Below are positions 5,579 through 58,781 of a DNA stretch of 64,000 bases, piece after piece. The stretch's first letter is position 1. Every line of letters begins with the position of its first letter. The stretch is from a virus: IMG/VR virus record IMGVR_UViG_3300027690_000096; one strand, 5' to 3'. The position numbers and the translations under genes were made by a program. The notes beneath the pieces were generated by a model. The model saw only the letters and a list, made by a program, of their open reading frames with translations. It was not told the origin of the DNA and ran no database searches.

Positions 5579-5917
5579 ATGGAACATCAAAAAGGAAACT
5601 GCTTCTTCGGGAATGATAAGCCATGCGATGATTGTCCTGAAGCAAAACATTGCAGAAATTATACAAAATTAAATAAAATTAATTACGAAGATAAACCTGA
5701 AGAAGAAAGAATCAAAAAGGTGTTATTAAAAATATTACAAGAAAGGCAGGTAACCCACTTATCTGCTGGGACAATGATTTGTTTTTGTAATGTTTGTGGT
5801 AACAGGGCAGATATTCTTGTTGATGGGGTTTGTAATTGTTGTAAAAGAGGTCAACATAAATTATACACAACGAAAGAAGTAATAGAAGTCATAAGACGCC
5901 TGGTATCAAGGCAATAG
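5579..5917 (+). CDS. Cys-rich (Zn-binding) hypothetical protein
   Basis: Several CxxC motifs. Confidence 0.6.
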   Translation: MEHQKGNCFFGNDKPCDDCPEAKHCRNYTKLNKINYEDKPEEERIKKVLLKILQERQVTHLSAGTMICFCNVCGNRADILVDGVCNCCKRGQHKLYTTKEVIEVIRRLVSRQ

Positions 5918-5929
5918 ACATAAACAAGG

Positions 5930-6202
5930 GTGATTAAAACGAAAAGAGAAAAGAAATCAATATGGGTCAGTCTTTACAAACATCCGAAAAATAATGAAAT
6001 CTTAATCGAGCTTGGCAAAATAAACGCCTCAGAAATGATTTACAATTTTGATAAAAATAAAAAGGAATTTATTGAAATTGGCTATCCTCATCTATTCGAA
6101 TATGTCAGATTGCCAAGGCTGATGAACTATAACGAAATGACTGAATGGATAGGCACACAAGAAGAAATCAGACAGAAGATTGAAAGGTATAGTCAAAAAT
6201 GA
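5930..6202 (+). CDS. Hypothetical protein
   Basis: ORF track; stop overlaps next start. Confidence 0.5.
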   Translation: MIKTKREKKSIWVSLYKHPKNNEILIELGKINASEMIYNFDKNKKEFIEIGYPHLFEYVRLPRLMNYNEMTEWIGTQEEIRQKIERYSQK

Positions 6203-6564
6203 ACATCCTAGTAACAACCCCAAAATCTGAAATCGATACCTCCAGAAAAGAAGGACAAATGGTCGAACAGGAAGGAGGATATTGGTTCAGAACATTCAAG
6301 TTCAAGCCGAAGGTTGAGCCTGGCGACAAAATATTCTTCACAAACGGATTCATCAAAGGCTATGGGATAATCTTCGAAGTCTCACAAGCCGATGAAGAAG
6401 GAGAACAATGCGAACTCACAGGCAGAATATGGAGTGGGAATTGGATAGTCAAATACCACGACTGGCACTGGCTACATACTCATATTCCATTCAAAGGATT
6501 TCAAGGCATTCGATACATAGACAGAATGCCTGAGCTGAAAGATAAACTCATGGAGGTTGAATGA
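6199..6564 (+). CDS. ASCH/EVE (PUA-fold)-like protein
   Basis: PGDKIFF..GFIKGYGII and PFKGFQGIRY motifs resemble phage ASCH-like proteins. Confidence 0.5.
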   Translation: MNILVTTPKSEIDTSRKEGQMVEQEGGYWFRTFKFKPKVEPGDKIFFTNGFIKGYGIIFEVSQADEEGEQCELTGRIWSGNWIVKYHDWHWLHTHIPFKGFQGIRYIDRMPELKDKLMEVE

Positions 6565-27789: not shown

Positions 27790-28257
27790 ATGACTTTTGT
27801 GGGTATTGTGGGAGCAAGGAAATATAAATGCAAAAATTCGGTTAAAAACCTCATTGTTTCGCTGCCAGAAGATTCAGTGATTGTAACAAGCAATTGCTCA
27901 GGGGTCTGCTCATGGTCACAAGGATTTGCCAGGGAAAGAGGTCTTGAGGTTCTTGTATATGCCCCAGACCTTGAAAACATCCGTTCAAAGTTCGATGTGG
28001 CTGATAGGTATTACATCAGAAACAAAGAGCTTGTTGAGAAGTGCGACCTGTTGCACGCATTCATCAGTAAAGCCGATGGTTACTCTGGGGGAACAAAGTT
28101 CGAAGTCGATTATGCAATCAAGATAGGTGTGCCAGTCAAGGCGCATCATGAAGAAGGCAAAAGCGAGATTTTCCAGCAGTTCAGGATTCCGTTCAAGAGC
28201 GAGGATAACCTTTTCTTCCAGAGATGGGAATCGTTCTTCACAGAAACATTTGCTTAG
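27790..28257 (+). CDS. SLOG-superfamily (DprA/SMF-like) protein
   Basis: VGIVGAR, IVTSNCSGVCSW, RNKELVEKCD.LHAF, GGT...VDYAIK.G.PV. Confidence 0.65.
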   Translation: MTFVGIVGARKYKCKNSVKNLIVSLPEDSVIVTSNCSGVCSWSQGFARERGLEVLVYAPDLENIRSKFDVADRYYIRNKELVEKCDLLHAFISKADGYSGGTKFEVDYAIKIGVPVKAHHEEGKSEIFQQFRIPFKSEDNLFFQRWESFFTETFA

Positions 28258-28940
28258 AACAGACAGCATATAACCTAAAGGAGGATGTCATGCAGACTAA
28301 ACATGTATTGAACGAGAGAGTCAATATAGAAGTCAAGGATAACGAGATTAATTCAGACTGGCATCTAAGCAGATTAGCCCATGAACTGTATTGGTGGTAT
28401 GATTTCATCAACATATTATTTTTCAAAGAAGAGCCTGTGCCTGTGCCAGTAATATCGTTTGAAAAGACCAGTGTAAAAACTCTAGGTCATTTTGTAATCG
28501 GAAAGAATGCGATAGGGCTATCAAATAACATCAACGTAAACAGGATATATCTTCACAGACCATTATGGGAAGTGATTGCTACTCTCACTCACGAGCTTTG
28601 CCATTCATGGCAACAAACATACGGAAAGCTTGAAAGCCGAAACTGGTATCATGGCAAAGAGTTCCAGCAGAAGATGCTTGAGATTGGCATTGTAACAAAC
28701 AACAAAGGACAGCACTTAGCAGTCTCGGACCCATTTGTTTACCTTCTTAGAAGGCACGGAGTCAATGTTTGCATTGAACCCAACATTGAAGGGATATTAG
28801 AGATTGACACAGAACCAAAGAAGAAAGGCAAATCCAAGCTTAAGAAATGGTCATGCGGCTGCACTAATATAAGGGTAGCAATTACCGATTTTAAAGCGAT
28901 ATGTTTGAAATGTGAGAACGAGTTCGAATTGGTCGAATGA
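28224..28940 (+). CDS. SprT-like zinc metalloprotease (likely start 28288, MQTKH)
   Basis: HELCH, HGKEF, C-terminal WSCGC.NIR...CLKC. Confidence 0.88.
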   Translation: MGIVLHRNICLEQTAYNLKEDVMQTKHVLNERVNIEVKDNEINSDWHLSRLAHELYWWYDFINILFFKEEPVPVPVISFEKTSVKTLGHFVIGKNAIGLSNNINVNRIYLHRPLWEVIATLTHELCHSWQQTYGKLESRNWYHGKEFQQKMLEIGIVTNNKGQHLAVSDPFVYLLRRHGVNVCIEPNIEGILEIDTEPKKKGKSKLKKWSCGCTNIRVAITDFKAICLKCENEFELVE

Positions 28941-37861: not shown

Positions 37862-39067
37862 TTAAGCGAATATGTCAGCTATGAAAAACTTCATCTTCAG
37901 CCATAATGCATCCCACCAGCTAAGGCTTGCTGTTGGTTTCGAGATACATTTTCCAGTATATTCGCATGTGTTAGATGATGTGCATTGGACATCTACGCCC
38001 GTGCAAGGGGCTTTAGGGCAGTCGGAATCTATTGTGCATTGTATTTTTCGAGGGTTGCATTCCCCTATATAAAAGCATCTGTTACCGAGGTTGTCAGGGT
38101 TCTTGCAGATGCCAGTTACACCGTCACAAGGAGCAGTGCAGTCAGCGTTTGAAAAACAGAAATTTCCGTATACAGGCTCACAAGTGCCATTTAGATATGA
38201 TGTGTAGCCAGAAGCTTCGGCAAAGCATTTGTTAGGGAATGTCACGCAAGAACTACCATCGCCTGAATTGACAGGCTCAAAGATTGTCCTGCAGAACACT
38301 CCTTCAGATTCTACATCATCGCAAACAAAGTTTTGGTTAGAATCAACACATGAACTGCCTTGTATGGAAACATCATCTTCATCGCAAACACCGTTTGAAT
38401 TTGCATCAGAACAAAGGAAAGACGTTGTTTCGTCGCATACCAAGTCTTCATCACGGTCAGCGCAATAATGAGAAGGGTTATCAATCTCAAATCCAAGACC
38501 ATAATCCAAGACGAAAAGTGAGTAAGCATTATCACATAGATTTGTCGAAAAAGTGTCCAGGCATACTGGCTGTGCATTAAAACAAAGGTTATCCTTCAGC
38601 ATCATCCCATCAGCGCATAGGCTGATTGCTTCTTCTCCAGACCTATAATCAATAGGGACTTCAATCTGTTCAACCCATTTATAAGATGTAGTTTCATATA
38701 CCTGTCTAAGGTCAACAAGGAATGTTACAACTGCATACCTGCTTCCTCTCGGAGGTATGAAAGTGATTGTTATATCGCCTTGATTGACATCTGTTATATC
38801 TTTGCATTCCTTGACAACAGCATCAGCTAATGAGTTACTGCCCTTCGGAACGACTACACCGCATGCATAAAGATATGAACATGAGCCAGATTCCCAGTTT
38901 GAATCAGTATTACAGCTTTTGTATTGATAATTTGATGCGTCAATCCGATATGTTTTTTGGAATGTGTCTTTTACTATGGTTGCAGAGCTTACACTTACAG
39001 CAGATATGATGAAGACAGACATCATGAGTATTAAGCAGGATAATATTTTTTGGTTAATTCTAAACAC
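37862..39067 (-). CDS. Secreted Cys-rich protein with Ca-binding-like DxDxDxxCD repeats
   Basis: CADRDEDLVCD, CSDANSNGVCD, CVDSNQNFVCD; aromatic C-terminal helix. Confidence 0.75.
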   Translation of the reverse strand: MFRINQKILSCLILMMSVFIISAVSVSSATIVKDTFQKTYRIDASNYQYKSCNTDSNWESGSCSYLYACGVVVPKGSNSLADAVVKECKDITDVNQGDITITFIPPRGSRYAVVTFLVDLRQVYETTSYKWVEQIEVPIDYRSGEEAISLCADGMMLKDNLCFNAQPVCLDTFSTNLCDNAYSLFVLDYGLGFEIDNPSHYCADRDEDLVCDETTSFLCSDANSNGVCDEDDVSIQGSSCVDSNQNFVCDDVESEGVFCRTIFEPVNSGDGSSCVTFPNKCFAEASGYTSYLNGTCEPVYGNFCFSNADCTAPCDGVTGICKNPDNLGNRCFYIGECNPRKIQCTIDSDCPKAPCTGVDVQCTSSNTCEYTGKCISKPTASLSWWDALWLKMKFFIADIFA

Positions 39068-39602
39068 CCCCTGAGATTGTTTTAATTAAAAAGTATATGC
39101 CTAATATGACTAAGCCAAAAAAGATTGGATGGAACGTAAAACCCAAAACGAGACCTATTAAAATCAAAGCGATTGAGACAATTATAACTGCTTTGCTTTC
39201 TGTCCTTGAGCCTGCAAAGTCAACGCATCGGGCTTTTCCATCTGATTCAGTGCATCTGCCTTTGCCGAGATAATCTTCACAATTCTCGCTTCTTTGTTGC
39301 CATTCCATACCACTCATTGTCTGAAGGCATTGATAATATATCCTGATGTTTCCTGAACAATAATCGCCTGTCGAAGCGTATATATTAGAACATTCAGAGC
39401 CAGCGATTGACAGAGGCGAGGCAGATATATCAAGAGCAGGGAGTGATGATTTGCCATACACAGATAATAATACATTCGAGTCAAATGGATCAGACGGAGC
39501 TAATGGCTTATCAATCGCAAACACAAAAAAAGAAGCCAAAGCTAACAAGGTCATGAACAATATTGATTTTTTGAGTTTATTTTTAGATATTATTTTTATC
39601 AC
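39060..39602 (-). CDS. Cys-rich protein with signal peptide and C-terminal TM hairpin
   Basis: ORF track; hydropathy read by eye. Confidence 0.7.
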   Translation of the reverse strand: MIKIISKNKLKKSILFMTLLALASFFVFAIDKPLAPSDPFDSNVLLSVYGKSSLPALDISASPLSIAGSECSNIYASTGDYCSGNIRIYYQCLQTMSGMEWQQRSENCEDYLGKGRCTESDGKARCVDFAGSRTESKAVIIVSIALILIGLVLGFTFHPIFFGLVILGIYFLIKTISGGV

Positions 39603-39605
39603 CCT

Positions 39606-40886
39606 TTATTTGAACAATCCTGCTATCCATTGCATGAATCCGATTGACATAATCTTATCCCATAAGCTTGTTGATTCCTTCTGAGGCTTATAGATACAGC
39701 TACCTACATATTCGCATTTGTTATCTGCGCAACTGGAAGATACGCCTGTGCATCCAGGAGGGATGTAACAATCAGATGTTAATTTACATCCTACAATAGC
39801 CCTCTCAGAAGGATTCTCACAGATTCCAGTATTTGTATCATATGCTTCTCCGATATCGCATCTTAACTCAATATTTGGAGTATTTTTTGTTATATAGAAA
39901 ACCTTCCATTCTTCAGCAGGAGCAACAACCGCAGACTGACCTCTCACAATCTTCTGAAGGATTTCTCCCCTGATATCTGTCTTTATTCCATCAGCAGAAA
40001 AGCTTCTTGCTTTGATTGGATAATCAAGGCAAAACTTGACAGGCTCATAAGCAAGGCTTGATATGTTGACTATACTGTTCTCACTGAACGAATCAAACAC
40101 AAGGATTTCATCGTCTTCAATCTTGCAGTTATAAGGGATTTTGTATTTGACGTAATCAATATATGATTTTGCATTAGCTCCTATATCATAAGCATAACTT
40201 GCAGTTGGAGTTGGGATTCCACCGCTTAGAATGAATTTGATTCTACCATCTCCTTGAGCGTTTGATGTGTTTATAGTTTGATATTCTTCTCCATTTACCT
40301 TAATGAAATAAATCTCAGGATATTCAAAAGATGGTATTGCTTCAACTGAACATGTTCTTTTAGTGAAACCTACTCCGTCTGGATATCTGCAAGTATAAAC
40401 TACTAAATCATTGATAATAAGTGATGACGTAGAAGCAAAATAGGTGTCAGACCCACCAGTCCCCCAATAATTCTTTTCCGTCATTAACTGAGTTTTAATA
40501 GACATTCCTTGTGTTATATCAGAAGGTATTAAAACCAAATCTGATGATATATAATTAAAAGTTCCTACACCTGCATTTTTTCTCGTTACATATTTTGAAT
40601 AAGAAACCCATCCATCTGAAAAAGATATCCTATTAGGCTCATCAGCGACAGAATATCCGTTCCAATAACCTCCTGTGAAGTCAATGTCCCATATCTCATA
40701 GTCAAGATAACCTTTCTGGAAATCGTCGTATATGATATAATCGTCAGCTATGCCTATTGACAGCTTATCAGATATCTTTGAGCCGAAGATGAACAATAAA
40801 ATGATAGCTATAATTCCTAAAAGCATGACTGGGTTAAGAAAACCTTTTTTAAGTTTTGATTTTGTATTTATATTCAATATGTTCAC
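39606..40886 (-). CDS. Membrane-anchored structural protein with KKG prepilin-like N-terminus
   Basis: KLKKG/FLNPVMLLG; C-terminal Cys cluster. Confidence 0.7.
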   Translation of the reverse strand: MNILNINTKSKLKKGFLNPVMLLGIIAIILLFIFGSKISDKLSIGIADDYIIYDDFQKGYLDYEIWDIDFTGGYWNGYSVADEPNRISFSDGWVSYSKYVTRKNAGVGTFNYISSDLVLIPSDITQGMSIKTQLMTEKNYWGTGGSDTYFASTSSLIINDLVVYTCRYPDGVGFTKRTCSVEAIPSFEYPEIYFIKVNGEEYQTINTSNAQGDGRIKFILSGGIPTPTASYAYDIGANAKSYIDYVKYKIPYNCKIEDDEILVFDSFSENSIVNISSLAYEPVKFCLDYPIKARSFSADGIKTDIRGEILQKIVRGQSAVVAPAEEWKVFYITKNTPNIELRCDIGEAYDTNTGICENPSERAIVGCKLTSDCYIPPGCTGVSSSCADNKCEYVGSCIYKPQKESTSLWDKIMSIGFMQWIAGLFK

Positions 40887-41758
40887 TTAAACCACCCCAT
40901 GAAAAAGCTTTTTATGGATTCCAATAATCTAACAAGTCTGCCTTTGCCTTCATTGTTCACGTTGTCAGGTATGTCCATGACAACCTCGTATTTGGTTTTT
41001 ATCGGCGAATCCTGTCTGATTGTAATCTTTTGGTCTGCATCAATTATTATGTAAGGCTGAATCTCAAGATCAGCTTTGCCGAGTTCAGAGGAATCAGGAG
41101 ATATCAGATAATTATTTGAGCCTTTGTTAAGTTTCATCGGAACAGCTACCCAGCCCTCGCCTCTCTCAAGAAGGTAATGTTTCTGCCTTACCCAGAGTCC
41201 AGCATGTTCTGAGTCAAAGTTTGCTAGATTGTTGTTTATCGTAGCAAGGAAATCCTTATCGCTGTTCAACGCAACATAATAAGGAGCATCATCAAATTGT
41301 GAGCTTAGGATATAAGATGTCTTGACAATGAAGTTATATGTGACTTGCCAATCTTTGTCTAAATAACCTCCTGCGATTCCGCTATCGTTACCGAATATGA
41401 CCTTTCCTTTAGGATTCATCGTCACAGAAAGATAATCGTTTATCTTAGTGTTTTGTCCTGCAATGAGTGTATAAGACTTTCCGTCGAATTTGATTTCTGT
41501 CTTCCAGCAATCAGTCCCGGGTTCAGGGTATATAACTCTTTTCTCACCTATGTCACCGCAGGTGTATTTGAGAGATGAAGAAGTGAATGATTTATCGCCT
41601 ATCATCAAAGGAGAAGCTGAAGAATAATGAGTGAATGAGAATGATGTTTCGTCTGAGAAAACTGAAAGTTTGTTTGCGCCTGACCCAAGCATAAACAGAG
41701 CAAAAGCTATAACTAAAATAATAAAAAAATAATTTAAATATCCTTTTTTTGAGTTCAT
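40883..41758 (-). CDS. Membrane-anchored structural protein with KKG prepilin-like N-terminus
   Basis: MNSKKG/YLNYFFIIL. Confidence 0.7.
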   Translation of the reverse strand: MNSKKGYLNYFFIILVIAFALFMLGSGANKLSVFSDETSFSFTHYSSASPLMIGDKSFTSSSLKYTCGDIGEKRVIYPEPGTDCWKTEIKFDGKSYTLIAGQNTKINDYLSVTMNPKGKVIFGNDSGIAGGYLDKDWQVTYNFIVKTSYILSSQFDDAPYYVALNSDKDFLATINNNLANFDSEHAGLWVRQKHYLLERGEGWVAVPMKLNKGSNNYLISPDSSELGKADLEIQPYIIIDADQKITIRQDSPIKTKYEVVMDIPDNVNNEGKGRLVRLLESIKSFFMGWFK

Positions 41759-41774
41759 GGTTTTAGACTTTATC

Positions 41775-42068
41775 TTATCCTCTGATAAAGCTTAATGCCT
41801 GCCAGTCGAGTGGGTTCCACATTACAAGCAGTGCTATTGCGATAAGGAATATTGCCATCTTTGCATTGACCATCCCCCTCATCATTCCTACTACAGCCCC
41901 AATTATAAGGACTCCACCTAGTATTTTGCCGAGCATGAAAAGAGAAGTGAACCATAATCCTAGTATGAAAACACCAATAAGTGCCCATATCCATGGATTC
42001 ATAAGCAGTCCAATTAACTGGAAAGCTCCTCTTTTGCTGGCGAACATTTGCCTATTTATTTTATTCAT
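41775..42068 (-). CDS. Small multi-TM protein with KRG prepilin-like N-terminus
   Basis: ASKRG/AFQLIGLL; three hydrophobic segments. Confidence 0.7.
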   Translation of the reverse strand: MNKINRQMFASKRGAFQLIGLLMNPWIWALIGVFILGLWFTSLFMLGKILGGVLIIGAVVGMMRGMVNAKMAIFLIAIALLVMWNPLDWQALSFIRG

Positions 42069-42077
42069 TTTATTAAA

Positions 42078-42221
42078 TCACCTCGCTATATTTTCGATTT
42101 GTTTTTGATTGGATTTGCTAAGACTCAATTGAGTTTGTGGTGTGAGAGCTTTCCCACAATGCCAACAGAATAATAATGGCGCAGTATTCAATGTTCCGCA
42201 ATTGTTACAATACCTATTCAT
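42078..42221 (-). CDS. 47-aa zinc-ribbon protein (not in ORF track)
   Basis: Hand translation MNRYCNNCGTLNTAPLLFCWHCGKALT... Confidence 0.6.
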   Translation of the reverse strand: MNRYCNNCGTLNTAPLLFCWHCGKALTPQTQLSLSKSNQKQIENIAR

Positions 42222-42251
42222 GTTTATCTACCCATTTGGTTTTTGTTATAT

Positions 42252-42677
42252 TCAAAAGTTATGTTTTCTTAAGACATTCCACCACAACCACAGATAACCG
42301 ATTGCGAAAGCAAATACTAAAAAATATGCAATCGCAAGAGCCCATCCGAATGAAAGGCTCCATGAAGACTCAAGCAATCTCCCGAGAGGGAATGCAAACA
42401 ATGTCTCGATGTCAAATCCGTATGGGGGGGTCACGATATCAATTGATAGGATAAATAATATCCAACCAATGATCTTAACGATGAATCCTATGTTGAGGAT
42501 GTATGAAATGATGGTCAGCAAAGAAAGACCGACCAAAAAATGTGTTACAGCCTTGTATGCTCCTCTTATACTGCCCCAGATAACTGCTGGGACATTCATA
42601 AGATTAAATCCTGTTGTTGTAAATATATTGACTCCTGCATAAGCAAGAATCATCAGCAAGAGGATTGTGAAGAGCAT
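42252..42677 (-). CDS. Multi-pass membrane protein
   Basis: About four hydrophobic segments. Confidence 0.65.
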   Translation of the reverse strand: MLFTILLLMILAYAGVNIFTTTGFNLMNVPAVIWGSIRGAYKAVTHFLVGLSLLTIISYILNIGFIVKIIGWILFILSIDIVTPPYGFDIETLFAFPLGRLLESSWSLSFGWALAIAYFLVFAFAIGYLWLWWNVLRKHNF

Positions 42678-42713
42678 TTTATATCAAGTATATCTCGTAT
42701 ATCAGGCTCAGGC

Positions 42714-44114
42714 TCATATCAAATATTGCCATATCAAGAGCAGTATTCCGATTACGAAAGCTCCTATTCCTACAGGCAAGCCTCCTAATGCGACTAAGAC
42801 AATTCCTAATATGACTGCCATCCAGCCGAAGATTATCCATAACATACTGCTTCCAGAGGTTAGGACATTACCTACCCCTACTGTAGCAACTTTCTGATAA
42901 TCTGGTATCGGACCGACAAGCTGATATTCGTTATGGTTCTCAAGTTGTTCATTAGTAAGGTCTTTATAGCATTTGTGCCTTGTTAAAAAATATACGTCAA
43001 ACTGCCCGTCACCGAGTATTGATTTTGGGACTTGAAGCTGTATGACTGATGTCTCTCCTTTCTTAAGCATGAATTGTTTATGCACATTCTCAGGATGTGT
43101 CGGGTCGCATGTCATCTGGCTTGAGATAAATGCAAAGTGAGGTTTGCCTTTTGGAACGACCTGCATTTCAAGGATATAAGTATCAATCATGTCATCGCCA
43201 GTGTTAGTGAACTCTGCTCGACCTATTACCTGTTCGGATGTTGGATCATAGTAAGCAGTTGTAGCTTTTGAGATTATGTTAGCTGAAGCTGATGGATTGA
43301 CTGCTCCTCCTCCTGAACCACTGCCTGAACCACCAGAACTTGAACAAGCGCCTACATCGACCCATTTACCAGTCTTACCTTCACATTGATAATTCCTGTC
43401 ATTAATGCACTCTTTACTTCCTGCATCGCCTGTTGGATGAAAGCAGTTTAGTGTGCAATCCTGATAATCTTTGTATGTCTCGCATGATTCAGTTGTTATC
43501 GTTCGGCTCTGTTTACCATCTGTGCAAGTGCCCCAGTTGGTTGACTTATAATCGCATGTATCAACTCCTGTGCATGTTGTCCAAGGGATGCATCTCTCAG
43601 TCTCAATACTTGACGGAGCGTTCTGACATGTCCTTACCCTGAGCATTTCGTCATCATCGCAGACTGCATATTTGCCACTTTTACCACAGCCCTTGGATGC
43701 AAAGTCTGAACATGTGTATTGAACAGTATAACAATTATACCTTTGCCAGTATGCAGCATTAGACGGAGCAGCTTTTGTGTTCTCGCCAGGATTAAGTGTA
43801 TCTTCACGGATAACTCTCCAGCTTGAGTCAAAGAACAGAACAACACAACCAGTCATGTCATCTGTAACCCCTGTCGGACCCGTGCACCAAACCCTGTAAC
43901 CTAAGTCAATTGAGGGTGTGCCCTGGTCATCTGGCAAATCTTGGCAGAGTCCGCCTTGGAAAACCCTAAGCTCTTTTGCAAGGCTTACAAAATTGCTATA
44001 CCTATCATCAGATGTTATTGGCAGATTGCCCTGCTGTGTTGCGTATGCAATAGATGATATTATCATCAGCATAGCTATAGCAAATATCAGTTTGATTGAA
44101 TTTTTTGTTTTCAT
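42714..44114 (-). CDS. Secreted Cys-rich protein (TSP1-like repeats) with Gly/Ser linker and C-terminal TM hairpin
   Basis: WGTCTDGKQSRTIT, CDDDEMLRVRTC, SSSGGSGSGSGGG. Confidence 0.75.
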   Translation of the reverse strand: MKTKNSIKLIFAIAMLMIISSIAYATQQGNLPITSDDRYSNFVSLAKELRVFQGGLCQDLPDDQGTPSIDLGYRVWCTGPTGVTDDMTGCVVLFFDSSWRVIREDTLNPGENTKAAPSNAAYWQRYNCYTVQYTCSDFASKGCGKSGKYAVCDDDEMLRVRTCQNAPSSIETERCIPWTTCTGVDTCDYKSTNWGTCTDGKQSRTITTESCETYKDYQDCTLNCFHPTGDAGSKECINDRNYQCEGKTGKWVDVGACSSSGGSGSGSGGGAVNPSASANIISKATTAYYDPTSEQVIGRAEFTNTGDDMIDTYILEMQVVPKGKPHFAFISSQMTCDPTHPENVHKQFMLKKGETSVIQLQVPKSILGDGQFDVYFLTRHKCYKDLTNEQLENHNEYQLVGPIPDYQKVATVGVGNVLTSGSSMLWIIFGWMAVILGIVLVALGGLPVGIGAFVIGILLLIWQYLI

Positions 44115-44148
44115 GTTTAAATAAACCTCCTTAGCCTATCTTATTATT

Positions 44149-44715
44149 CTAACTGGCAGACCATTTGCCATCTCTGAACGATACATATTTGTTTATGACT
44201 TTTTCTTGGTCATCTTCATAAACATAAGCGACAAGCTGACCATCGAAATCGTCTATCATGTTATCGCAATTGTTATCTGGTAGCTTGAAATCAAGCACAT
44301 AATTCTTACGCTGAATTTCGTCACCGCCTGGATGATTATCTTTACCTGAATCGCAATCGACCTCGTTATTTGTTCGGGTATTAACAAGGCAGACTTTCCA
44401 TTCATAATCTTGATTGAATACTCCTAATAGTGAATATTCCCTTACTTCTGATACGGATATTTTTACTGGTTCAGGAGAAACACCCCAGAAAGCTGTATCA
44501 GAAACATCAAGAGTTCCAGCAATCCTCACGCCAATGTTCTTTGGCTTACATCCATTTTGAGATGGTGTTAAACTGTCTATAACAGAACCGCCTGATACAT
44601 TGTTTACAAGGATTACTGCTAATACTCCGAAGACTACAATGCCAGCCATGATTGCTGCAATGTGAATCATTCCTTTGTTTGTTTTTGTTAATTGATTAAG
44701 ATTATTTCTTGTCAT
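44149..44715 (-). CDS. Membrane-anchored protein with NKG prepilin-like N-terminus
   Basis: TNKG/MIHIAAIMAGIVV. Confidence 0.7.
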   Translation of the reverse strand: MTRNNLNQLTKTNKGMIHIAAIMAGIVVFGVLAVILVNNVSGGSVIDSLTPSQNGCKPKNIGVRIAGTLDVSDTAFWGVSPEPVKISVSEVREYSLLGVFNQDYEWKVCLVNTRTNNEVDCDSGKDNHPGGDEIQRKNYVLDFKLPDNNCDNMIDDFDGQLVAYVYEDDQEKVINKYVSFRDGKWSAS

Positions 44716-44759
44716 GTTACCACCTTGATTTAGTTTTTTTTGTGTGATTTATTTTATTT

Positions 44760-45539
44760 TTATATCGCTATCGAGAGGCTCTCTTGTGATGTAAGCCACC
44801 CATTCCATCCGCCGTGAGCTGTGTCCATTGCGGTTGTATCTTTGCCTGTCATGTAATACGATGATATCCAAAGAACCATTATCATAGAAGCCCACCATAT
44901 AAGTTTCCATACAACGCTATATGCGATGATATGAAAAAGACCAAATGTGATTGATGTGATTAAGATTGGAAGCATGAGTGAAAGAGGAGCTATCATGCCT
45001 AATATTGGGATAAGTGATAAGACAACCTGCAATGCGCCTTTGGATAATAATAATATACTAAGCCATGCAATGAACATCCTGTTTTCAATGAATCCGAGAG
45101 ATAATGATATCGCTGGAGCGAACTGAGCTGTGATCCATGCTGAAAAGCCTGCGCCTGTGACGGATAGAGGAGCAACTCCTAAGAATTGTCCTTTTGTTGA
45201 CGATATTATCGCCATTACAGATAAGATGATTAAACCTATTACTATGCTCAACAGATGATATCTTAATCCTTTTACAACACCTCCTGTCTTAAGACCGTTT
45301 GTGTCCATAGAGGTTGCGTTTGTCTGCAATTGATTTCCGAGATTGGCTCTTACCGCCATGAAGAAAACAATACCTAAAGGATAGAATATCTTCTGGATTG
45401 TTGTCATATCAAAAGCTATAAGCCCCCACATGTAAAACATGAAAAGAATACCCGAGCTTAGAAGTGGATGAATTGCATCAGCTACAAGCAGAAGAGCAAA
45501 AACTGATATTGCAATTATTAATGATAGTGTAAATGACAT
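44760..45539 (-). CDS. CPBP/Abi (Rce1-like) intramembrane protease-like protein
   Basis: Multi-TM; IENRMF (variant of EExxxR), FGLFH (FxxxH), HGGWN (HxxxN). Confidence 0.65.
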   Translation of the reverse strand: MSFTLSLIIAISVFALLLVADAIHPLLSSGILFMFYMWGLIAFDMTTIQKIFYPLGIVFFMAVRANLGNQLQTNATSMDTNGLKTGGVVKGLRYHLLSIVIGLIILSVMAIISSTKGQFLGVAPLSVTGAGFSAWITAQFAPAISLSLGFIENRMFIAWLSILLLSKGALQVVLSLIPILGMIAPLSLMLPILITSITFGLFHIIAYSVVWKLIWWASMIMVLWISSYYMTGKDTTAMDTAHGGWNGWLTSQESLSIAI

Positions 45540-45658
45540 TGACTTCCAGCCTCCATTGGTTTGTTTTTATAGATAGGATGTTTACGATTTAATGAATGAT
45601 TAGCAAACTATCTAATGATATTAATTTTAAAATAAAAAATAAAAAATGGCTGGTAGCC

Positions 45659-46726
45659 TTAAGCCTGGTAATAAATCGCTGTGGTGTTGCCCTGAGAGAT
45701 TACATTATTGTCTTCATCATATATTCCAGTTATGATTGTAAGCTCATCTGCATCAAGGTCTTTATTGATTGGATACCAATGGACTTTCACGTTACCTTGG
45801 TCTTCTTCAGAGGTTGCTGAAGTCATCTTCACATCAAAGCAGATTTCAACTTTTTTACCGTTGCATAGCTCACCGCTGTATTTCATCAGCTTATACTGAT
45901 CCATGTCAAGACCTGTTGCGCTGTGGTTTGTATCGTGCGCTGCAAAGAATGATGAGTCAGTGTTCACAAGGTCGCTTGAGCTAATCTGTGAAACATAGGT
46001 TGCATCATACTCGAAAGCTACAATCGCTCCATACCTTGAAGAACATGCTTCAGTTGGTGCTTTTACAGTTATGCAAGGTGTGTATGTTTCAGACCCGTCG
46101 GCAAGTTGGTGATTTGCGTCGCTGTTTGATGTTACGCCATTATCATTCACAATCGTTAATGTTGGCGCGCTTGCTGGCTTAAGCATTGGCTGGATGTCAA
46201 CATCTGAACATACGGTTGAGAACTCAATCTCTTCAGCGAAATAGCTGGATATTGGAGTTCCTAAGTTGTTTCCTGCTAGAGCTTTATATTTAGAAAGAAC
46301 ATCAGCTTTTGTTGTGGTTGCATCGTCTGCTACAGTCTTCAATACAAAATTGTCATCGCCAATCTTACTATAGATTGTGAGTGTATTGTTTGGGTCTGTG
46401 CCAGCCTTGTAAGCGTTTATGTCGTTGTATAGAGCATAGACTGAAGCAATTCCATCGCATGAAAGAGCATCCTTAACTGCTGGTGTTACAGAAGAATCTA
46501 TTAATTTTTCACCGCTAGGGGTTGTAACTTTTAGTTGAGGAGCAGGGGCTTCTTCGCCATCTGACTCGCCATCTGACATAAAATGTTGATAAGCTCCATA
46601 TCCAAGTATTCCTACACCTACTAATGCAAGAAGAGGAATTATTGCTGCTGCAATTCCTTTTTTCTGTTTTATCAAAGCGTTTGTTGGCACGACTTCGATT
46701 TTTTTTATATTATGCAAAGTTTTCAT
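45659..46726 (-). CDS. Candidate major structural protein with KKG prepilin-like N-terminus
   Basis: First gene after a promoter with a strong AGGAGGA RBS; QKKG/IAAAIIPLL; beta-rich body. Confidence 0.55.
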   Translation of the reverse strand: MKTLHNIKKIEVVPTNALIKQKKGIAAAIIPLLALVGVGILGYGAYQHFMSDGESDGEEAPAPQLKVTTPSGEKLIDSSVTPAVKDALSCDGIASVYALYNDINAYKAGTDPNNTLTIYSKIGDDNFVLKTVADDATTTKADVLSKYKALAGNNLGTPISSYFAEEIEFSTVCSDVDIQPMLKPASAPTLTIVNDNGVTSNSDANHQLADGSETYTPCITVKAPTEACSSRYGAIVAFEYDATYVSQISSSDLVNTDSSFFAAHDTNHSATGLDMDQYKLMKYSGELCNGKKVEICFDVKMTSATSEEDQGNVKVHWYPINKDLDADELTIITGIYDEDNNVISQGNTTAIYYQA

Positions 46727-46782
46727 TTCTAAATCCTCCTGCGGGTCAAAGCCGCAACATGGATTAATATGATATAAGCTTG

Positions 46783-46823
46783 TTTATATACTAGAGGCTC
46801 AAAAGGTCACTTTTTGAGCCTCT
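46783..46823 (-). promoter_or_regulatory. TATA box with an adjacent 12-bp perfect inverted repeat
   Basis: TATATAAA on the - strand (46783-46790); AGAGGCTCAAAA-N7-TTTTGAGCCTCT (46793-46823). Confidence 0.55.
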
Positions 46824-47098
46824 CATTTAAATAAGGTTCTACTATTGAGTAATGAACAGCGAGAGGATGAGCAGATCCAATAGGTAGATTTTTGGAAGTT
46901 TTTTTGGTTACTTTTGTGCTTTCTTTTGCTTACTTTAGAAATATAATGCGGTCTCTTTTTGCTACTTTTACATTCTCTTTTGCTTACTTTTAGATATTTC
47001 TCAGATTTACTCAGAGGCGGATTTTGAAAGGATATCATTAAAAATATGCAAATAATATTATATGTTAGGATATAAAATATTGGCTTCGCCAATATATT

Positions 47099-47608
47099 TT
47101 ATGTTCGCGCAAGGCTAAGATAGATTGGAGCCTTAAGATAAGGAGGGCATTTAGGTAGATTTCTTTTTTTATTATATAAGCCTTGATTAATATTTATAAC
47201 TGAATTTAATACTTTTCTGTAGCCTTGTTCATCACGAATATCTATACAGAGTAAACCACTTATTATATAGACAGTATTAAGCAGAGTTGACCTAGAGATT
47301 TTCATATGCTTACTAATTTCATTATACATCTTTTCTAAAGTTACTTTACAATCCTTGCTTGGAAGATTATGCAGATATTTAGCAATCAAGATAATCCTTA
47401 AAGCCATCCTTTTATTTATATGAATAAAACTTACTGGCTCTCCTGATGAATCATATCTATACACTAATCTGAATTTGTTATGGATTGGTATTCTTGATTT
47501 TTTTTTACAATTGTTAATTGGATTAGTTTGGTCTGGATTATCCTGAATAGAATTATAATTTTCTTTAGATGTATCATAATGAAAATTTGTTGAGTCTTCT
47601 GTCATCAT
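47099..47608 (-). CDS. Winged-helix-like DNA-binding hypothetical protein
   Basis: VTLEKMYNEISKHMKISRSTLLNTV. Confidence 0.5.
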   Translation of the reverse strand: MMTEDSTNFHYDTSKENYNSIQDNPDQTNPINNCKKKSRIPIHNKFRLVYRYDSSGEPVSFIHINKRMALRIILIAKYLHNLPSKDCKVTLEKMYNEISKHMKISRSTLLNTVYIISGLLCIDIRDEQGYRKVLNSVININQGLYNKKRNLPKCPPYLKAPIYLSLART

Positions 47609-49008
47609 ACTTTTCCTCCTAATTGTTCTAATGCTGTTTCCATATCAAGAACACCCCTAAAACTGTTCTCTGGAATGTCTTTTAGTTTTCTTGGTTTCTG
47701 TTGCTTAAGCCAGGATTTAACTCTCGATTCATATTCCCTAACTGGCATAGGGAAAAAACCTCCTATTGTTGAAAGGTCAATTATCTCAGTTAGAAAACAA
47801 TTCTGAGTTTCATATAAATATTCTGCTGGGGATTCCTTATAAGTCTTAAGCATTTGAATGAAGGGTTCATTAGCTCGGGCTTTGTGGCAATAAGGAACTA
47901 CTCCGAATCTGTATTTGTTTTCTATGTCAACGAAATCACCAACCTTAAGTTTTAATAATGTAGACCTGTCTTTCTTTTTAATTCCAAATATATTTAACAT
48001 GTTAAGGTCTTTTGGGTTTCTAGCTTTGCCTGCATAAATCCTTGTCTGAGAAAGCATGTCAGGAGGTAATGAGGATAAGTTTTGAAGATTCAACCTAAGC
48101 CTTACGCCAAAGCTTCTCATTAGCAGAAGACCTACAAGCATTGAATATTGGAGAGTATTGACTACGTTCTCTAATGCTCTCACTTTCTTCGGCATGATTA
48201 TCTGAATCTCTGGGATAAGGATTGAAAATACCTCATCACTCTTTCTATGACGATGAACACCTTTGCCGATTGTAAGAAGCTCGTTTAGTATTCCTATCAT
48301 AAAACTTGTTGCAGCAACGACATTCTGACCCATCATGAAAAATGTTGAGATTATATTGACTTCTTTATTGTTTGACATCTCATCAAAATTTATGTATTCC
48401 CATCCGCAGCCTTCTTCGCTGAAATCATCATCATCAAAAGCAAGTTTCATCTTGCCCATCTCTTCCTTGAACTCGTTTAAAATTCTGGTTTGACCCATCA
48501 ATTTGTCTCGGTTTGATTTAGAAGCGATTGATTGAAGATGAGACTTTGCAAGTGCCATGTTTGCTGTATCTTCAGAGATCAGCATTGATTGAAGTATTCT
48601 GAAGGGTCTTATCCGAAGGTTCGGATGATGCAGATTAAGAAGCTCTTTGAAGTGGAGATTGTGCTGCAATCCGTTGATGTAAGGAATCCAGAGATTGACT
48701 TTATAACCTCTACCGACAAGACGATTCTTCTCTAAGATATTTCTTAATATGACATCCTGCTGGCTGTAGATTGCGCACGGGTATTCCATCTTAACGTCAA
48801 GGATTATGACTGTCCTATTATGGGCTATGTCATTGTTGACTGCATAAGAACAGATTGTGTCTTTGCCTGAACCTGACTGACCGAATGCTATAAGACTGAA
48901 ATCCCCATCGCCAAAGATAGTGTTCCAGCTAGAAGGGACAGATATATTCTCCTGATACAAGTTAGCAGGATATACTAGTTTCTGACTATAATTTCGAAAA
49001 TTCCCCAT
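47605..49008 (-). CDS. FtsK/HerA-superfamily ATPase with variant Walker motifs (packaging/secretion candidate)
   Basis: GQSGSGKD (Walker A variant), ILIPEIQ (Walker B variant), RSFGVRLRLNLQ. Confidence 0.7.
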   Translation of the reverse strand: MGNFRNYSQKLVYPANLYQENISVPSSWNTIFGDGDFSLIAFGQSGSGKDTICSYAVNNDIAHNRTVIILDVKMEYPCAIYSQQDVILRNILEKNRLVGRGYKVNLWIPYINGLQHNLHFKELLNLHHPNLRIRPFRILQSMLISEDTANMALAKSHLQSIASKSNRDKLMGQTRILNEFKEEMGKMKLAFDDDDFSEEGCGWEYINFDEMSNNKEVNIISTFFMMGQNVVAATSFMIGILNELLTIGKGVHRHRKSDEVFSILIPEIQIIMPKKVRALENVVNTLQYSMLVGLLLMRSFGVRLRLNLQNLSSLPPDMLSQTRIYAGKARNPKDLNMLNIFGIKKKDRSTLLKLKVGDFVDIENKYRFGVVPYCHKARANEPFIQMLKTYKESPAEYLYETQNCFLTEIIDLSTIGGFFPMPVREYESRVKSWLKQQKPRKLKDIPENSFRGVLDMETALEQLGGKV

Positions 49009-56030: not shown

Positions 56031-56721
56031 AACAACTTCACAAAAGAGGATATCTTCTATATATGATTTTGTAGCAAAACTTGATGTGACAAATACTCAA
56101 AATATTAGTCTTCACTTTGAGAGAACTTTTAATGATATACTATCAATATTTTTTGATAAGTGGAAATGTAAATTAATTTATGTCTTATATAATGTTGAAA
56201 TTTCAAGTATATGGGAATTATCTAATCATTTCAACCTTTGTTATAATTATAGAAAAGATATGAATACTATATTAATGGATCTTGAAACAAAGAACATCGT
56301 TGAAGAAATTTATAGCGATACTGTTGAGTGTAAAACACTTCGTAAAGTATGGGAAATACTTCATCCTAATGGGAAGAGGACATATAGAAAAACAAAACTT
56401 TTCAAGTTATCTGATGATTTTAAATCAGTATTTGAATTATTCTTAGACGAGGTTTATTCAAAATATATTTACAGAAGTGAATATCTAAATATTGAAATAA
56501 GAAAAATATCTTTTCATAAAATCTATAATGAAATAATAGGAAAAGAGAAACAATCTTTAGTTCTTGATGAAAATTGCATAGGAAGATGCTTTAAATGTAA
56601 TCAACCTATCAGTAAAGACTCAACTGAATACATGAATATCTATGAAGGTGTAGTTCATAAGACATGCTTTAAGAACACTCCGCAAAAAGAAGCAATAACA
56701 TGGAAACAGAAACACAAATAA
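56008..56721 (+). CDS. Winged-helix plus Zn-finger protein (candidate initiator or MCM loader)
   Basis: ILMDLETKNIVEE...LFKL wHTH-like; CFKC...HKTC; overlaps the mcm start. Confidence 0.5.
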   Translation: MIQITNIETTSQKRISSIYDFVAKLDVTNTQNISLHFERTFNDILSIFFDKWKCKLIYVLYNVEISSIWELSNHFNLCYNYRKDMNTILMDLETKNIVEEIYSDTVECKTLRKVWEILHPNGKRTYRKTKLFKLSDDFKSVFELFLDEVYSKYIYRSEYLNIEIRKISFHKIYNEIIGKEKQSLVLDENCIGRCFKCNQPISKDSTEYMNIYEGVVHKTCFKNTPQKEAITWKQKHK

Positions 56722-58781
56722 CCACCTTCAGAAATATAATAGACTCATATTACTATGAATCTCTTATTGAATCTGTTAGGAATGGGAATAAATTCTTTGT
56801 GATAGATTTCCAAGATATTTCTAAGAGCAATATTGAACTTGCAGATGATTTGCTTGAAAACCCTGAAGAATGCCTTAAATCTGCAGGTATAGCAATATCT
56901 CAGTTTGACCTTCCTGTTTCACATACACCAGACATAATAATAAGAATCAAGAATCTTCCAAAAATACAAATAAAAAGAATAAGAGACCTCAGAAGCAAAC
57001 ATATTGGAAAATTTATCTGTTTAGAAGGAACTATAAGACAAAAGAGCGAGATAAGACCTCAGATAATCGCGGCAAAATTTGAATGTCCATCTTGTGGTAA
57101 CATCATACCAACTCTTCAGATTGACAGTAAATTTAAAGAACCAAATCACTGTGGTTGCGGAAGAAGAGGAAAATTTAGGATGATATCAAAAGACCTGATT
57201 GACGCTCAAAACGTAAAGCTTGAAGAAGACATTGACGCTCTTGACGGAGGAGAGCAACCAAAAAGACTTAACATATTCATGCAAGATGATTTAATCACTC
57301 CTCTGCTTGAGAAAAGAGCTTACCCAGGCTCAAAAATAAAGGTTAACGGGTATCTAAAAGAAACTCCAGTAATCCTAAAAAACGGTGGAAAAAGCACAAG
57401 ATTAGAATGGATATTTGAAGCCAATTATTTTGAATCAATTAATGAGGATTTTGGTGAAGTCAAGATAAGCGATAATGAAAAGATGGAAATCGAAATTATG
57501 TCTCAGGAAGATGATATAATCCATCGCTTAGTAAAATCAATCGCTCCTTCAATATATGGGCATGAAAGAATCAAAGAAGCCCTTCTTATTCAGCTTGTCG
57601 GAGGAGTTAAGAAATACCAGCAAGACGGAATGAAGATTAGAGGGGATATGCATGTCCTTCTTATAGGCGACCCAGGTTCTGGAAAATCTCAATTATTAAA
57701 GAGAATAAACAAAATCGCCCCAAAATCAAGATTTATAAGCGGTAAAGGTGCATCAGCCGCAGGACTAACGGCATCCGTAGTAAGAGATGATTTTATGGGT
57801 GGCTGGGCGCTTGAAGCTGGGGCATTAGTTCTAGCAAACAAAGGACTAATCTGTATTGACGAGCTTGACAAGATGTCAAAAGATGACACAAGCGCAATGC
57901 ACGAGGCCCTTGAAGGACAGCTTGTCACAATCTCAAAAGCTAATATTCAAGCAACTTTGAAATGCGAAACAACAGTCCTTGCAGCAGCCAACCCTAAGTT
58001 TGGTAAATTTGACCTTCACGCAAAAACAATAGCAGACCAGTTTGAACTGCCTTCGACATTGATAAATAGGTTTGACTTGATATTTCCTATAAAGGATATA
58101 CCAGACAACAAAAAAGATGAGAAATTAGCTAAATTCCTGATTAATGTCCACATAAAATCTAATAATCATAAAACTAATAATCAAAATACAGAGACCTCAA
58201 ATAATGTAAATAAGCAAATCATAGATAATAATAATATAATTGACACTGATATGCTTCGCAAATATATTGCCTATGTAAGAACATTAACACCTATAATAAC
58301 TGAAGAAGCAAGTAAGCAATTCGTTCAATATTATCTCAAGATGAGACAAAGCGGTTTAAAGGAAGGTTCAGTTAAATCTATACCTATATCAGCAAGACAG
58401 CTCGAAGGGCTTATAAGAATGTCAGAAGCATTTGCAAAACTAAGAATGCGAGATAAGGTAACAATTGAAGATGCGAATCAGGCAATAAACCTTCTTGATT
58501 TTTGTTTAAATCAAATAGCTTTTGATGATCAGACTGGAACGATTGACATAGACAGGATAACAACAGGCATAACAGCAAGCTCAAGAAACAATATTTCTAT
58601 CTTGAAAGATATAATTAATACGCTTGAAGATAAGTTTGGGAAATGTATTCCTATAAGCGAGATATCACTTGTTGCATCAGATAGAGGAATATCAGAAGAT
58701 AATCTTGAACCTACTCTTGATAAACTAAAAAAGGCAGGTGATGTATTCGAACCGAGAAGAGGATTTATTTCAAAATTTTGA
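56700..58781 (+). CDS. mcm: Archaeal MCM replicative helicase
   Basis: GDPGSGKS Walker A, IDELDKM Walker B, AAANPK.G.F, LINRFD and ISARQLE arginine motifs, Zn finger, C-terminal wHTH. Confidence 0.98.
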   Translation: METETQITTFRNIIDSYYYESLIESVRNGNKFFVIDFQDISKSNIELADDLLENPEECLKSAGIAISQFDLPVSHTPDIIIRIKNLPKIQIKRIRDLRSKHIGKFICLEGTIRQKSEIRPQIIAAKFECPSCGNIIPTLQIDSKFKEPNHCGCGRRGKFRMISKDLIDAQNVKLEEDIDALDGGEQPKRLNIFMQDDLITPLLEKRAYPGSKIKVNGYLKETPVILKNGGKSTRLEWIFEANYFESINEDFGEVKISDNEKMEIEIMSQEDDIIHRLVKSIAPSIYGHERIKEALLIQLVGGVKKYQQDGMKIRGDMHVLLIGDPGSGKSQLLKRINKIAPKSRFISGKGASAAGLTASVVRDDFMGGWALEAGALVLANKGLICIDELDKMSKDDTSAMHEALEGQLVTISKANIQATLKCETTVLAAANPKFGKFDLHAKTIADQFELPSTLINRFDLIFPIKDIPDNKKDEKLAKFLINVHIKSNNHKTNNQNTETSNNVNKQIIDNNNIIDTDMLRKYIAYVRTLTPIITEEASKQFVQYYLKMRQSGLKEGSVKSIPISARQLEGLIRMSEAFAKLRMRDKVTIEDANQAINLLDFCLNQIAFDDQTGTIDIDRITTGITASSRNNISILKDIINTLEDKFGKCIPISEISLVASDRGISEDNLEPTLDKLKKAGDVFEPRRGFISKF

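Follow-up and report, generated by a model that had tools for sequence, protein, structure and literature searches.

We analysed a 64,000-nucleotide stretch of viral DNA (IMG/VR record IMGVR_UViG_3300027690_000096; hereafter the window, with about 36% G+C and no tRNA genes) and found that its 37.9–49.0 kb region is most likely the conserved core of a surface and membrane operon belonging to a roughly 75-kb, MCM-replicating archaeal mobile element, kin to the elements that carry the fusexin Fsx1. This core encodes five proteins whose N-termini resemble archaeal class III (prepilin-type) signals and, in their midst, a divergent CPBP-family protein (Table 1). We see a slightly better than even chance that the class III leaders are cut by an A24 peptidase of the host, that the proteins form an attachment or fusion apparatus, and that the CPBP-like protein is the core protease of the module, acting on one of the module's own proteins.

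To place the operon in its evolutionary context, related loci were retrieved through the CPBP-like protein (L001–L008 and L010), the 466-aa (amino acid) protein (L009 and L021) and Fsx1 (L020). The gene order is conserved and runs from an ATPase and a small protein, across a gap of some 350 nucleotides, to the 355-aa, CPBP-like, 188-aa, 466-aa, 141-aa, 97-aa, 291-aa and 426-aa families, with more Sec-exported Cys-rich proteins and then giant adhesin-like proteins 3′ of the 426-aa family. All five leader-bearing open reading frames (ORFs) lie on the minus strand, with the coordinates and N-termini that the initial annotation of the window had given them (Table 1). As it also noted, Asp or Glu is absent from position +5 in all five, a feature that it took as a sign against a filament and that is uninformative in archaea.

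Within the window, the motif is confined to this region, and it is strongly conserved in the related loci. A scan of all 175 window ORFs of at least 60 aa for [KR]G placed directly before a hydrophobic segment in the first 45 residues returned six ORFs, every one at 39.6–46.7 kb, the sixth match (42252–42677) being an internal loop of a polytopic protein and not a leader. Across 14 related loci, 49 of 50 orthologous N-termini retain a [KR][KRN][G/A] junction before a hydrophobic helix, counted after correction of a few mis-called starts, among them the apparent CTG starts of L004 and L005. Gly or Ala occupies position −1, after K/R or K-N, in 12 of 12 resolved N-termini of the 355-aa family (a thirteenth, in L021, also fits), in 9 of 9 in both the 188-aa and the 97-aa families, in 9 of 10 in the 291-aa family, where the L020 orthologue bears an ordinary Sec signal, and in 10 of 10 in the 426-aa family after start correction. 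Position −2 is K or R almost everywhere, with a few N-termini reading K-N-[GA]; the residues that flank the junction vary freely, and the remainder of the five protein families falls to 15–25% identity. Junctions in 188-aa orthologues thus read KRG/I, LRG/Q, KKG/V, SKG/Q, NKA/Q, KKG/M or KKA/N, and those in 97-aa orthologues KKG/I, KKG/T, RKG/M, KKA/Q or KKA/F. In the alignment of the 355-aa family (A3; 11 orthologues, 15–77% identity), whose ectodomains share 15–23% identity between subclades, K22-K23-G24 are the sole nearly invariant N-terminal residues. The other exported proteins of the operon carry ordinary Sec signals with AxA sites, such as the conserved A/(T/E)QQGNLP in the 466-aa family. 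Because the K[KR]G motif is kept across diverging orthologues while its neighbours use Sec AxA signals, we consider it to be real, specific and under selection.

Prepilin-type processing requires Gly, Ala or Ser at −1, and in archaea a charged residue at −2, ahead of the hydrophobic H-domain, is critical; experimentally supported sites include KGQV, KGQL, KGQI and RAQI for EppA and KAIS, KGIS and RALS for PibD (PMC4371748). All five window proteins agree with the −1 and −2 rules, as do nearly all of their orthologues, which bears out their initial description as carriers of archaeal class III signal peptides. They share with the PibD, FlaK and EppA substrates (pilins, archaellins and bindosome proteins) a basic leader, G/A at −1, K/R at −2 and a site before a roughly 20-aa H-domain, and many orthologues have Gln at +1, as do EppA substrates (PMC4371748). 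Unlike those systems, the element has neither PilB and PilC nor a peptidase gene, and the set is encoded on a mobile element beside a CPBP protease; its carriers are large and heterogeneous (97–426 aa), one being multi-pass and two having C-terminal amphipathic tails, and the leader of one family (355-aa) is long and conserved. Searches of Pfam, NCBIfam and PHROGs gave no informative match for any of the five proteins, and ESM Atlas searches with the 355-aa and 466-aa proteins were uninformative. The Atlas model of the 355-aa protein is poor (predicted local distance difference test score, pLDDT, 0.41) and weakly resembles Ig-like (immunoglobulin-like) pilin or adhesin domains, by which its ectodomain is probably a beta-sandwich.

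The gene directly downstream of the 355-aa gene had been annotated as CPBP-like from the motifs IENR (residues 150–154), FGLFH (199–203) and HGGWN (242–246), all of which we recover. The ORF has no Pfam match at E ≤ 0.1 and no NCBIfam match, and 20 homologues carry no precomputed Pfam domain. Three largely independent comparisons put it in the CPBP/Rce1 fold. Of its 100 feature neighbours in the ESM Atlas, 98 are Rce1-like, and a CPBP cluster is closest to it in structure (TM-score 0.50). When an AlphaFold2 model built from 17 homologues (pLDDT 81, predicted template modelling score 0.82) was compared with 48,161 PDB chains by VIA-align, SpdC came first (6u0o_A, Z 8.5, 177 aligned) and M. maripaludis Rce1 second (4cad_C, Z 7.9, root mean square deviation 3.5 Å over 154 residues), with rank 3 at Z 5.1; the top 30 AlphaFold-DB clusters are mostly annotated as CPBP or CAAX proteases. 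Foldseek found zero matches for the model in the PDB, and a hidden Markov model (HMM) of the family alignment (A1) gave only a chance match among PDB sequences. As Foldseek is blank and a Z of about 8 is merely moderate for helical bundles, the sequence motifs matter for this assignment. Among 22 homologues, down to 26% identity, 13 positions are invariant and seven of these lie in the motifs (E152, N153, F199, F202, H203, H242 and N246). Motifs 2 (FxxxH) and 3 (HxxxN) are invariant in all 22 sequences; motif 1 reads E-N-(R), with the first Glu kept, Asn as the second residue, R154 variable and the Arg shifted relative to EExxxR.

Taken with the model ranking, the invariant motifs support a CPBP fold for this ORF, its E/H/H/N residues being intact, and the 259-aa protein probably represents a very divergent and catalytically active CPBP subfamily. 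The predicted fold, FxxxH, HxxxN and the first Glu of motif 1 are common to it and to the CPBP/Rce1/Abi family (MmRce1 4CAD, SpdC 6U0O, myxosortase MrtX), whereas it falls below detection by PF02517 and NCBIfam, departs from EExxxR in motif 1, spaces its motifs differently (51 aa from E to H, 39 aa from H to H) and has additional helices at its N-terminus as well as a hydrophilic loop that is conserved (residues 71–90). An A24 peptidase was considered for the same ORF and ruled out: it has no Pfam match, A1 contains no GxGD, and its invariant acidic residues are E152 and D234. The CPBP gene lies directly downstream of the 355-aa-family gene in 14 of 14 module loci, including those retrieved through other genes; frequent absence of CPBP from modules with KKG genes, which the initial annotation had named as evidence against its proposal, is therefore not what we find. 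A complex prediction for the CPBP protein with residues 1–60 of the 355-aa protein scored 0.00, which speaks neither for nor against binding.

The operon also frames a slot whose content differs between loci. Downstream of the CPBP gene, L007, L010 and L020 lack the 188-aa and 466-aa genes and have in their place small lipobox proteins and a 592–625-aa protein with Pfam Fsx1 and HAP2-GCS1 annotations; the L007 protein matches HAP2-GCS1 (1.4e-10), NCBIfam Fsx1 (7.5e-42) and the Fsx1 crystal structure 7P4L (1.2e-16). L010 has in common with the window the CPBP gene (39% identity), the 141-aa and 426-aa families and the adhesin (42–52%), and L020 the CPBP gene (A1 HMM, 3e-31), the 291-aa family and the adhesin C-terminus. 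Judged by these similarities, the three loci and the window contain homologous modules that differ in the genes of a single slot. To our knowledge, Fsx1 fusexins are the sole prokaryotic homologues of the eukaryotic gamete fusogen HAP2. Their genes have been described within integrated elements that exceed 50 kb and carry HerA, VirB4 and TraG/VirD4 genes; the neighbours named in that first description are DNA-mobilisation genes only, and CPBP, CAAX and prepilin come up neither in its text nor in the available supplements (Moi et al. 2022, PMC9259645). The window's element resembles these in size (>50 kb), in its HerA/VirB4/TraG-like ATPases, in MCM and in its cluster of secreted and membrane proteins, with a true Fsx1 in the three sister loci; it differs from them in that the window lacks Fsx1 and the unrelated 188-aa and 466-aa pair fills the slot.

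The 466-aa family has 21 invariant Cys (alignment A2). Its AlphaFold2 model reaches a pLDDT of 67.5, with 60–80 for the Cys-rich N-terminal part, and its Ig-like domain (residues 278–415) structurally matches GH2 Ig domains (Z ~9) and HAP2 domain III (Z 7.3–7.8), no other part of the model being matched. Fold searches of BFVD and the Atlas returned only generic Ig, Fn3 and CARDB domains, and Pfam, NCBIfam and PHROGs gave no informative match. We rejected it as a recognisable Fsx1 homologue, as neither the window protein nor six orthologues match Fsx1, HAP2-GCS1 or 7P4L at E ≤ 10; BLASTP is blank, and hhalign against the L007 Fsx1 aligns the transmembrane (TM) region alone (probability 7.7%). 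A fusogen could have such an architecture: the protein is Sec-exported and Cys-rich, its Ig-like domain is membrane-proximal and it has a TM hairpin. Since the 466-aa protein is without detectable Fsx1 homology, it is the slot position that points to a fusion role for the window's element.

A general association of CPBP with all Fsx1 genes was also rejected: neither the genome G187 nor the more distant L022, on a short contig, has a CPBP gene near its Fsx1 gene. G187, a genome in a single contig of 829 kb that belongs to the phylum of the Woesearchaeota discussed below (DPANN), encodes a 764-aa Fsx1-like protein (C1:769055–771349, loci L018/L019; E 4e-33) in another context, without a CPBP/KKG module, and an Fsx1 match occurs in just 2 of 401 sampled genomes of that phylum. 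In the Fsx1-type loci of the module itself, small lipobox-like proteins (IVGC, LTGC, MTGC, VSGC, LAGC) flank the fusexin gene (L007:3578–3817 and 5716–6162; L010:11058–11599; L020:3800–4066 and 6115–6552). In S. aureus, the CPBP-family protein LnsB participates in the N-acylation of lipoproteins (PMC7387801), and by analogy such a role is possible for the CPBP gene here.

An A24 leader peptidase would come from the host. As the initial annotation had observed for the window, no A24 peptidase, PilB or PilC is seen among its ORFs of at least about 190 aa, and the Pfam-annotated gene tables of related loci show none either. The closest relatives of the window's MCM in species-representative genomes are in three Woesearchaeota metagenome-assembled genomes (MAGs; 50–56% identity) and one Methanosarcinales MAG (51%), which gives sequence similarity to DPANN (Woesearchaeota-like) or methanogen-related archaea as a probable lead to the host; the hosts are probably not haloarchaea. 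Peptidase_A24 (PF01478) is found above the Pfam cut-off in 5 of 5 genomes, namely these four MAGs and one more of the same phylum, so a host prepilin peptidase is plausibly available. The MCM relatives sit on short contigs of the four MAGs and may belong to related mobile elements instead of being chromosomal MCM genes. The 467-aa ATPase has no match in the four MAGs, and the CPBP family (A1) none in these four or in 401 genomes of their phylum.

We therefore propose the following course for the module. The five proteins would be inserted through Sec with the N-terminus inside, and a host A24 prepilin peptidase of the PibD/FlaK/EppA type would cut their leaders at the cytoplasmic face, at [KR][KRN][G/A]/x. 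The cut proteins would stay held in the membrane by the N-terminal helix, as pilins and bindosome subunits are, and may assemble with the Sec-exported Cys-rich proteins, the downstream adhesin-like proteins and the protein of the fusogen slot (42714–44114 here, Fsx1 in the sister loci) into an apparatus for attachment or membrane fusion, located on the cell surface or on the envelope of a vesicle or virion. The 259-aa CPBP enzyme would be the core glutamic intramembrane protease and process one of the module's own membrane proteins, with either the KKG junctions or the C-terminal Trp-rich tails of the 291-aa, 426-aa and 401-aa families as its substrate signal.

These tails are 18–20-aa, Trp/Phe-rich amphipathic segments with which three families that are otherwise unrelated end (window 40883–40945, 39606–39670 and 37862–37925; examples are SLWDKIMSIGFMQWIAGLFK and LSWWDALWLKMKFFIADIFA), and they recur in L001–L004, L006, L009, L010 and L020, wherever those genes occur. 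They might anchor the proteins at the membrane interface, serve as interaction helices or act as C-terminal sorting signals.

Several points weigh against the proposed course. Cleavage is deduced from sequence rules; several residues at +1 to +4 (G, P, N, Y) are atypical of the start of a pilin H-domain; the 97-aa carrier is multi-pass, an unusual trait in substrates of prepilin peptidases; the leader of the 355-aa family is long (about 22 aa; 24 aa in the window protein) and conserved in most loci, which is atypical of class III signals and would allow for a retained cytoplasmic tail; and PilB/PilC assembly genes do not accompany the leader proteins. The host lead, through MCM, is indirect, and the 401 genomes of that phylum are without the CPBP family. 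Finally, fusion is attributed to the 466-aa protein by positional equivalence only, given its lack of detectable homology to Fsx1.

The length and conservation of the 355-aa leader, the multi-pass carrier and the missing PilB/PilC genes would all fit if the K[KR]G segments were uncleaved signal anchors of type II membrane proteins, with basic residues obeying the positive-inside rule, Gly or Ala capping the helix and the 355-aa leader serving as a cytoplasmic tail. We nonetheless regard such anchors as doubtful: five unrelated families keep G/A at one position almost without exception (49 of 50 N-termini), which exceeds what the positive-inside rule would give, the long 355-aa leader appears dispensable because that of L009 is only 7 aa, and, since the other exported proteins of the operon use Sec AxA signals, two signal types are maintained side by side. 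If the leaders are cut, the element's own CPBP protease might remove them in place of a host enzyme, as a non-aspartyl, element-encoded leader peptidase. The initial annotation had left open whether the host's PibD or the element's own CPBP protease removes the leaders. The strict adjacency of the CPBP gene to the 355-aa KKG gene (14 of 14 loci), the invariant catalytic residues and the conservation of the junction even on a multi-pass, unlikely pilin, as befits a module-specific recognition signal, all favour removal by CPBP. Rce1, moreover, is reported to cut at the cytoplasmic membrane face, which is where the KKG junction would sit. We know of no characterised CPBP enzyme, however, that cleaves after K/R-G ahead of an N-terminal hydrophobic helix, and the motif is exactly what archaeal A24 peptidases need, which are present in candidate host lineages; leader removal by CPBP thus seems unlikely to us.

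With the leaders left to the host, the CPBP protein might act as a C-terminal sorting or processing enzyme for the Trp/Phe-rich tails of the 291-aa, 426-aa and 401-aa proteins. A shared signal at the extreme C-terminus of three unrelated families, beside a dedicated membrane protease, is the pattern that revealed the myxosortases, which are experimentally supported CPBP enzymes (10.1101/2023.06.07.544157; PMC11980579), and such action gains some weight because known CPBP enzymes act on C-terminal signals (Rce1 on CAAX, myxosortase on MYXO-CTERM). The tails, on the other hand, have neither the three-part layout of a sorting signal (motif, TM helix, basic cluster) nor an invariant Cys, and may simply be interfacial membrane anchors or interaction helices, for which reasons we deem tail processing improbable. 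We consider it highly unlikely that the CPBP-like protein is an immunity or entry-exclusion factor, as Abi/CPBP proteins are against bacteriocins, or a scaffold, as SpdC is in binding SagB. Exclusion functions are common in conjugative elements and SpdC is the top structural match (Z 8.5), whereas the strict E/H/H/N invariance in 22 sequences down to 26% identity argues for catalysis. Leader cleavage by a host A24 peptidase, with CPBP as the module's own protease, remains our preferred reading.

As to the nature of the element, the window's CPBP-like protein is placed on a 73.8-kb contig in the protein collection, and its close relatives are on contigs of 74.7, 75.8 and 65.9 kb as well as inside two much longer ones, ERZ21878193 ctg13428l of 541 kb and ERZ21869602 ctg94714l of 1.06 Mb. 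Because of these roughly 66–76-kb contigs and the two much longer ones, we estimate the element at about 75 kb and consider that it probably occurs in both free and integrated form. No capsid, portal, terminase or pleolipovirus-like protein was recognised among the window proteins in Pfam or PHROGs, and the window's ATPases are of the DUF87/HerA/VirB4/TraG type. The absence of capsid genes, these ATPases and the copies in very long contigs together favour an integrating element moved through cell contact, cell fusion or vesicles. An enveloped pleomorphic virus is a possible alternative. As in pleolipoviruses and pR1SE, no capsid is recognisable and an NTPase adjoins spike-like and membrane proteins; the element differs from them in its several-fold larger genome and its MCM and TraG-like genes, and PHROGs detected no homology to pleolipovirus proteins. 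The particle-maturation pathway initially suggested for the leaders and the CPBP gene thus found no support, with no capsid, portal or terminase recognisable, ATPases and MCM as in the Fsx1-carrying integrated elements, and copies inside 0.54-Mb and 1.06-Mb contigs, none of which refutes it. Neither the CPBP protein nor the ATPase has a match in the viral contig collection, and the CPBP family alignment (A1) has none in the genome and metagenome contig collections.

Each part of this module belongs to a kind already known, be it the class III signals, the CPBP fold or the Fsx1-type element. Going by the searchable literature, what appears undescribed is their arrangement, with a cryptic CPBP subfamily fixed beside a prepilin-type set, and a conserved frame around an exchangeable fusogen slot, on an MCM-encoding element. 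The gene set around the slot supplies concrete candidates for the partner and maturation factors of archaeal fusexins, and the natural swap of Fsx1 and non-Fsx1 genes in the slot can be tested for fusion activity. It further adds a CPBP subfamily that is invisible to current HMM libraries and a case of a mobile element that makes heavy use of class III signal peptides without having pilus-assembly genes of its own, in probable DPANN or methanogen-related hosts for whose biology membrane contact and fusion are central. More speculatively, and with low probability in our judgement, the operon may be a self-contained archaeal fusion or entry machine with an exchangeable fusogen, in which the 466-aa protein would be a new class of fusogen and the class III proteins and CPBP would be accessory or maturation factors of fusexins, CPBP serving as a protease dedicated to processing the membrane proteins of the set.

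Table 1. Positions of the genes and sites of the operon core, and of other features of the window
Feature	Position	Strand	Remarks
DUF87/TraG-like ATPase	22429–24489		
SprT-like zinc metalloprotease domain	28224–28940		end of plus-strand block; Pfam E 1.5e-9
401-aa Sec-signal protein	37862–39067	−	Cys-rich; C-terminal Trp-rich tail
180-aa Sec-signal protein	39060–39602	−	C-terminal TM anchor
426-aa protein	39606–40886	−	class III-type signal KKG/FLNPV; Cys-rich C-terminal domain; Trp-rich tail
291-aa protein	40883–41758	−	class III-type signal KKG/YLNYF; C-terminal Trp/Phe-rich amphipathic tail
97-aa multi-pass membrane protein	41775–42068	−	class III-type junction KRG/AFQLI
141-aa polytopic membrane protein	42252–42677	−	orthologues in L001–L005, L009, L010; no Pfam match
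466-aa Sec-exported Cys-rich surface protein	42714–44114	−	AYA/TQQGNLP; Ig-like domain 278–415; C-terminal TM hairpin
188-aa protein	44149–44715	−	class III-type signal NKG/MIHIA
259-aa divergent CPBP-family protease (Rce1/Abi-like)	44760–45539	−	about 9 helices; putative catalytic E152/H203/H242/N246
355-aa protein	45659–46726	−	class III-type signal KKG/IAAAI
Putative operon promoter region	46727–46830	−	12-bp stem-loop, TATATAAA box and GGAGGA ribosome-binding site before the 355-aa gene
169-aa conserved small protein	47099–47608	−	orthologues in L001–L006, L009
467-aa P-loop ATPase, HerA/FtsK-VirB4-like	47605–49008	−	first conserved gene of the syntenic block
Archaeal MCM helicase	56700–58781		

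Beyond the core, the window also encodes DNA methyltransferases, and a long minus-strand run of genes for exported and membrane proteins extends from about 53 kb to 29 kb. The 467-aa ATPase that opens the syntenic block matches DUF87 weakly (E 0.011) and the VirB4_plasma P-loop (2e-5), and its orthologues in L001–L006 and L009 share 48–78% identity; the one in L002 (5493–8079) contains an interrupting intein, which bears a LAGLIDADG homing endonuclease (Pfam annotations Intein_splicing and LAGLIDADG_3). The 169-aa protein that follows it has zero family matches in Pfam and PHROGs. The promoter assigned to the gap before the 355-aa gene is putative, being read from sequence features, and a gap of 300–400 nucleotides is found at the corresponding place in L001–L005. 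At 46790–46830 on the minus strand, just upstream of the TATATAAA box and GGAGGA, the arms GAGGCTCAAAAG and CTTTTGAGCCTC form a perfect 12-bp stem-loop, which may terminate the ATPase unit or act as an operator.

At the other end of the core, the 426-aa and 401-aa proteins have in common a Cys-rich C-terminal domain, CTGV..C....C.Y.G.C (window 39606–39800 and 37862–38100), and in L005 (14518–15897) and L006 (7540–9642) the two genes are apparently fused or recombined into a single longer protein. The 426-aa orthologues of L004 (14455–14600) and L005 (14480–14600) have no ATG, GTG or TTG start; a CTG opens the frame directly after a stop codon, and this frame overlaps the stop of the upstream 291-aa-family gene, so translation of the 426-aa genes in these two loci could begin at CTG, coupled to that of the upstream gene, or involve a programmed frameshift.

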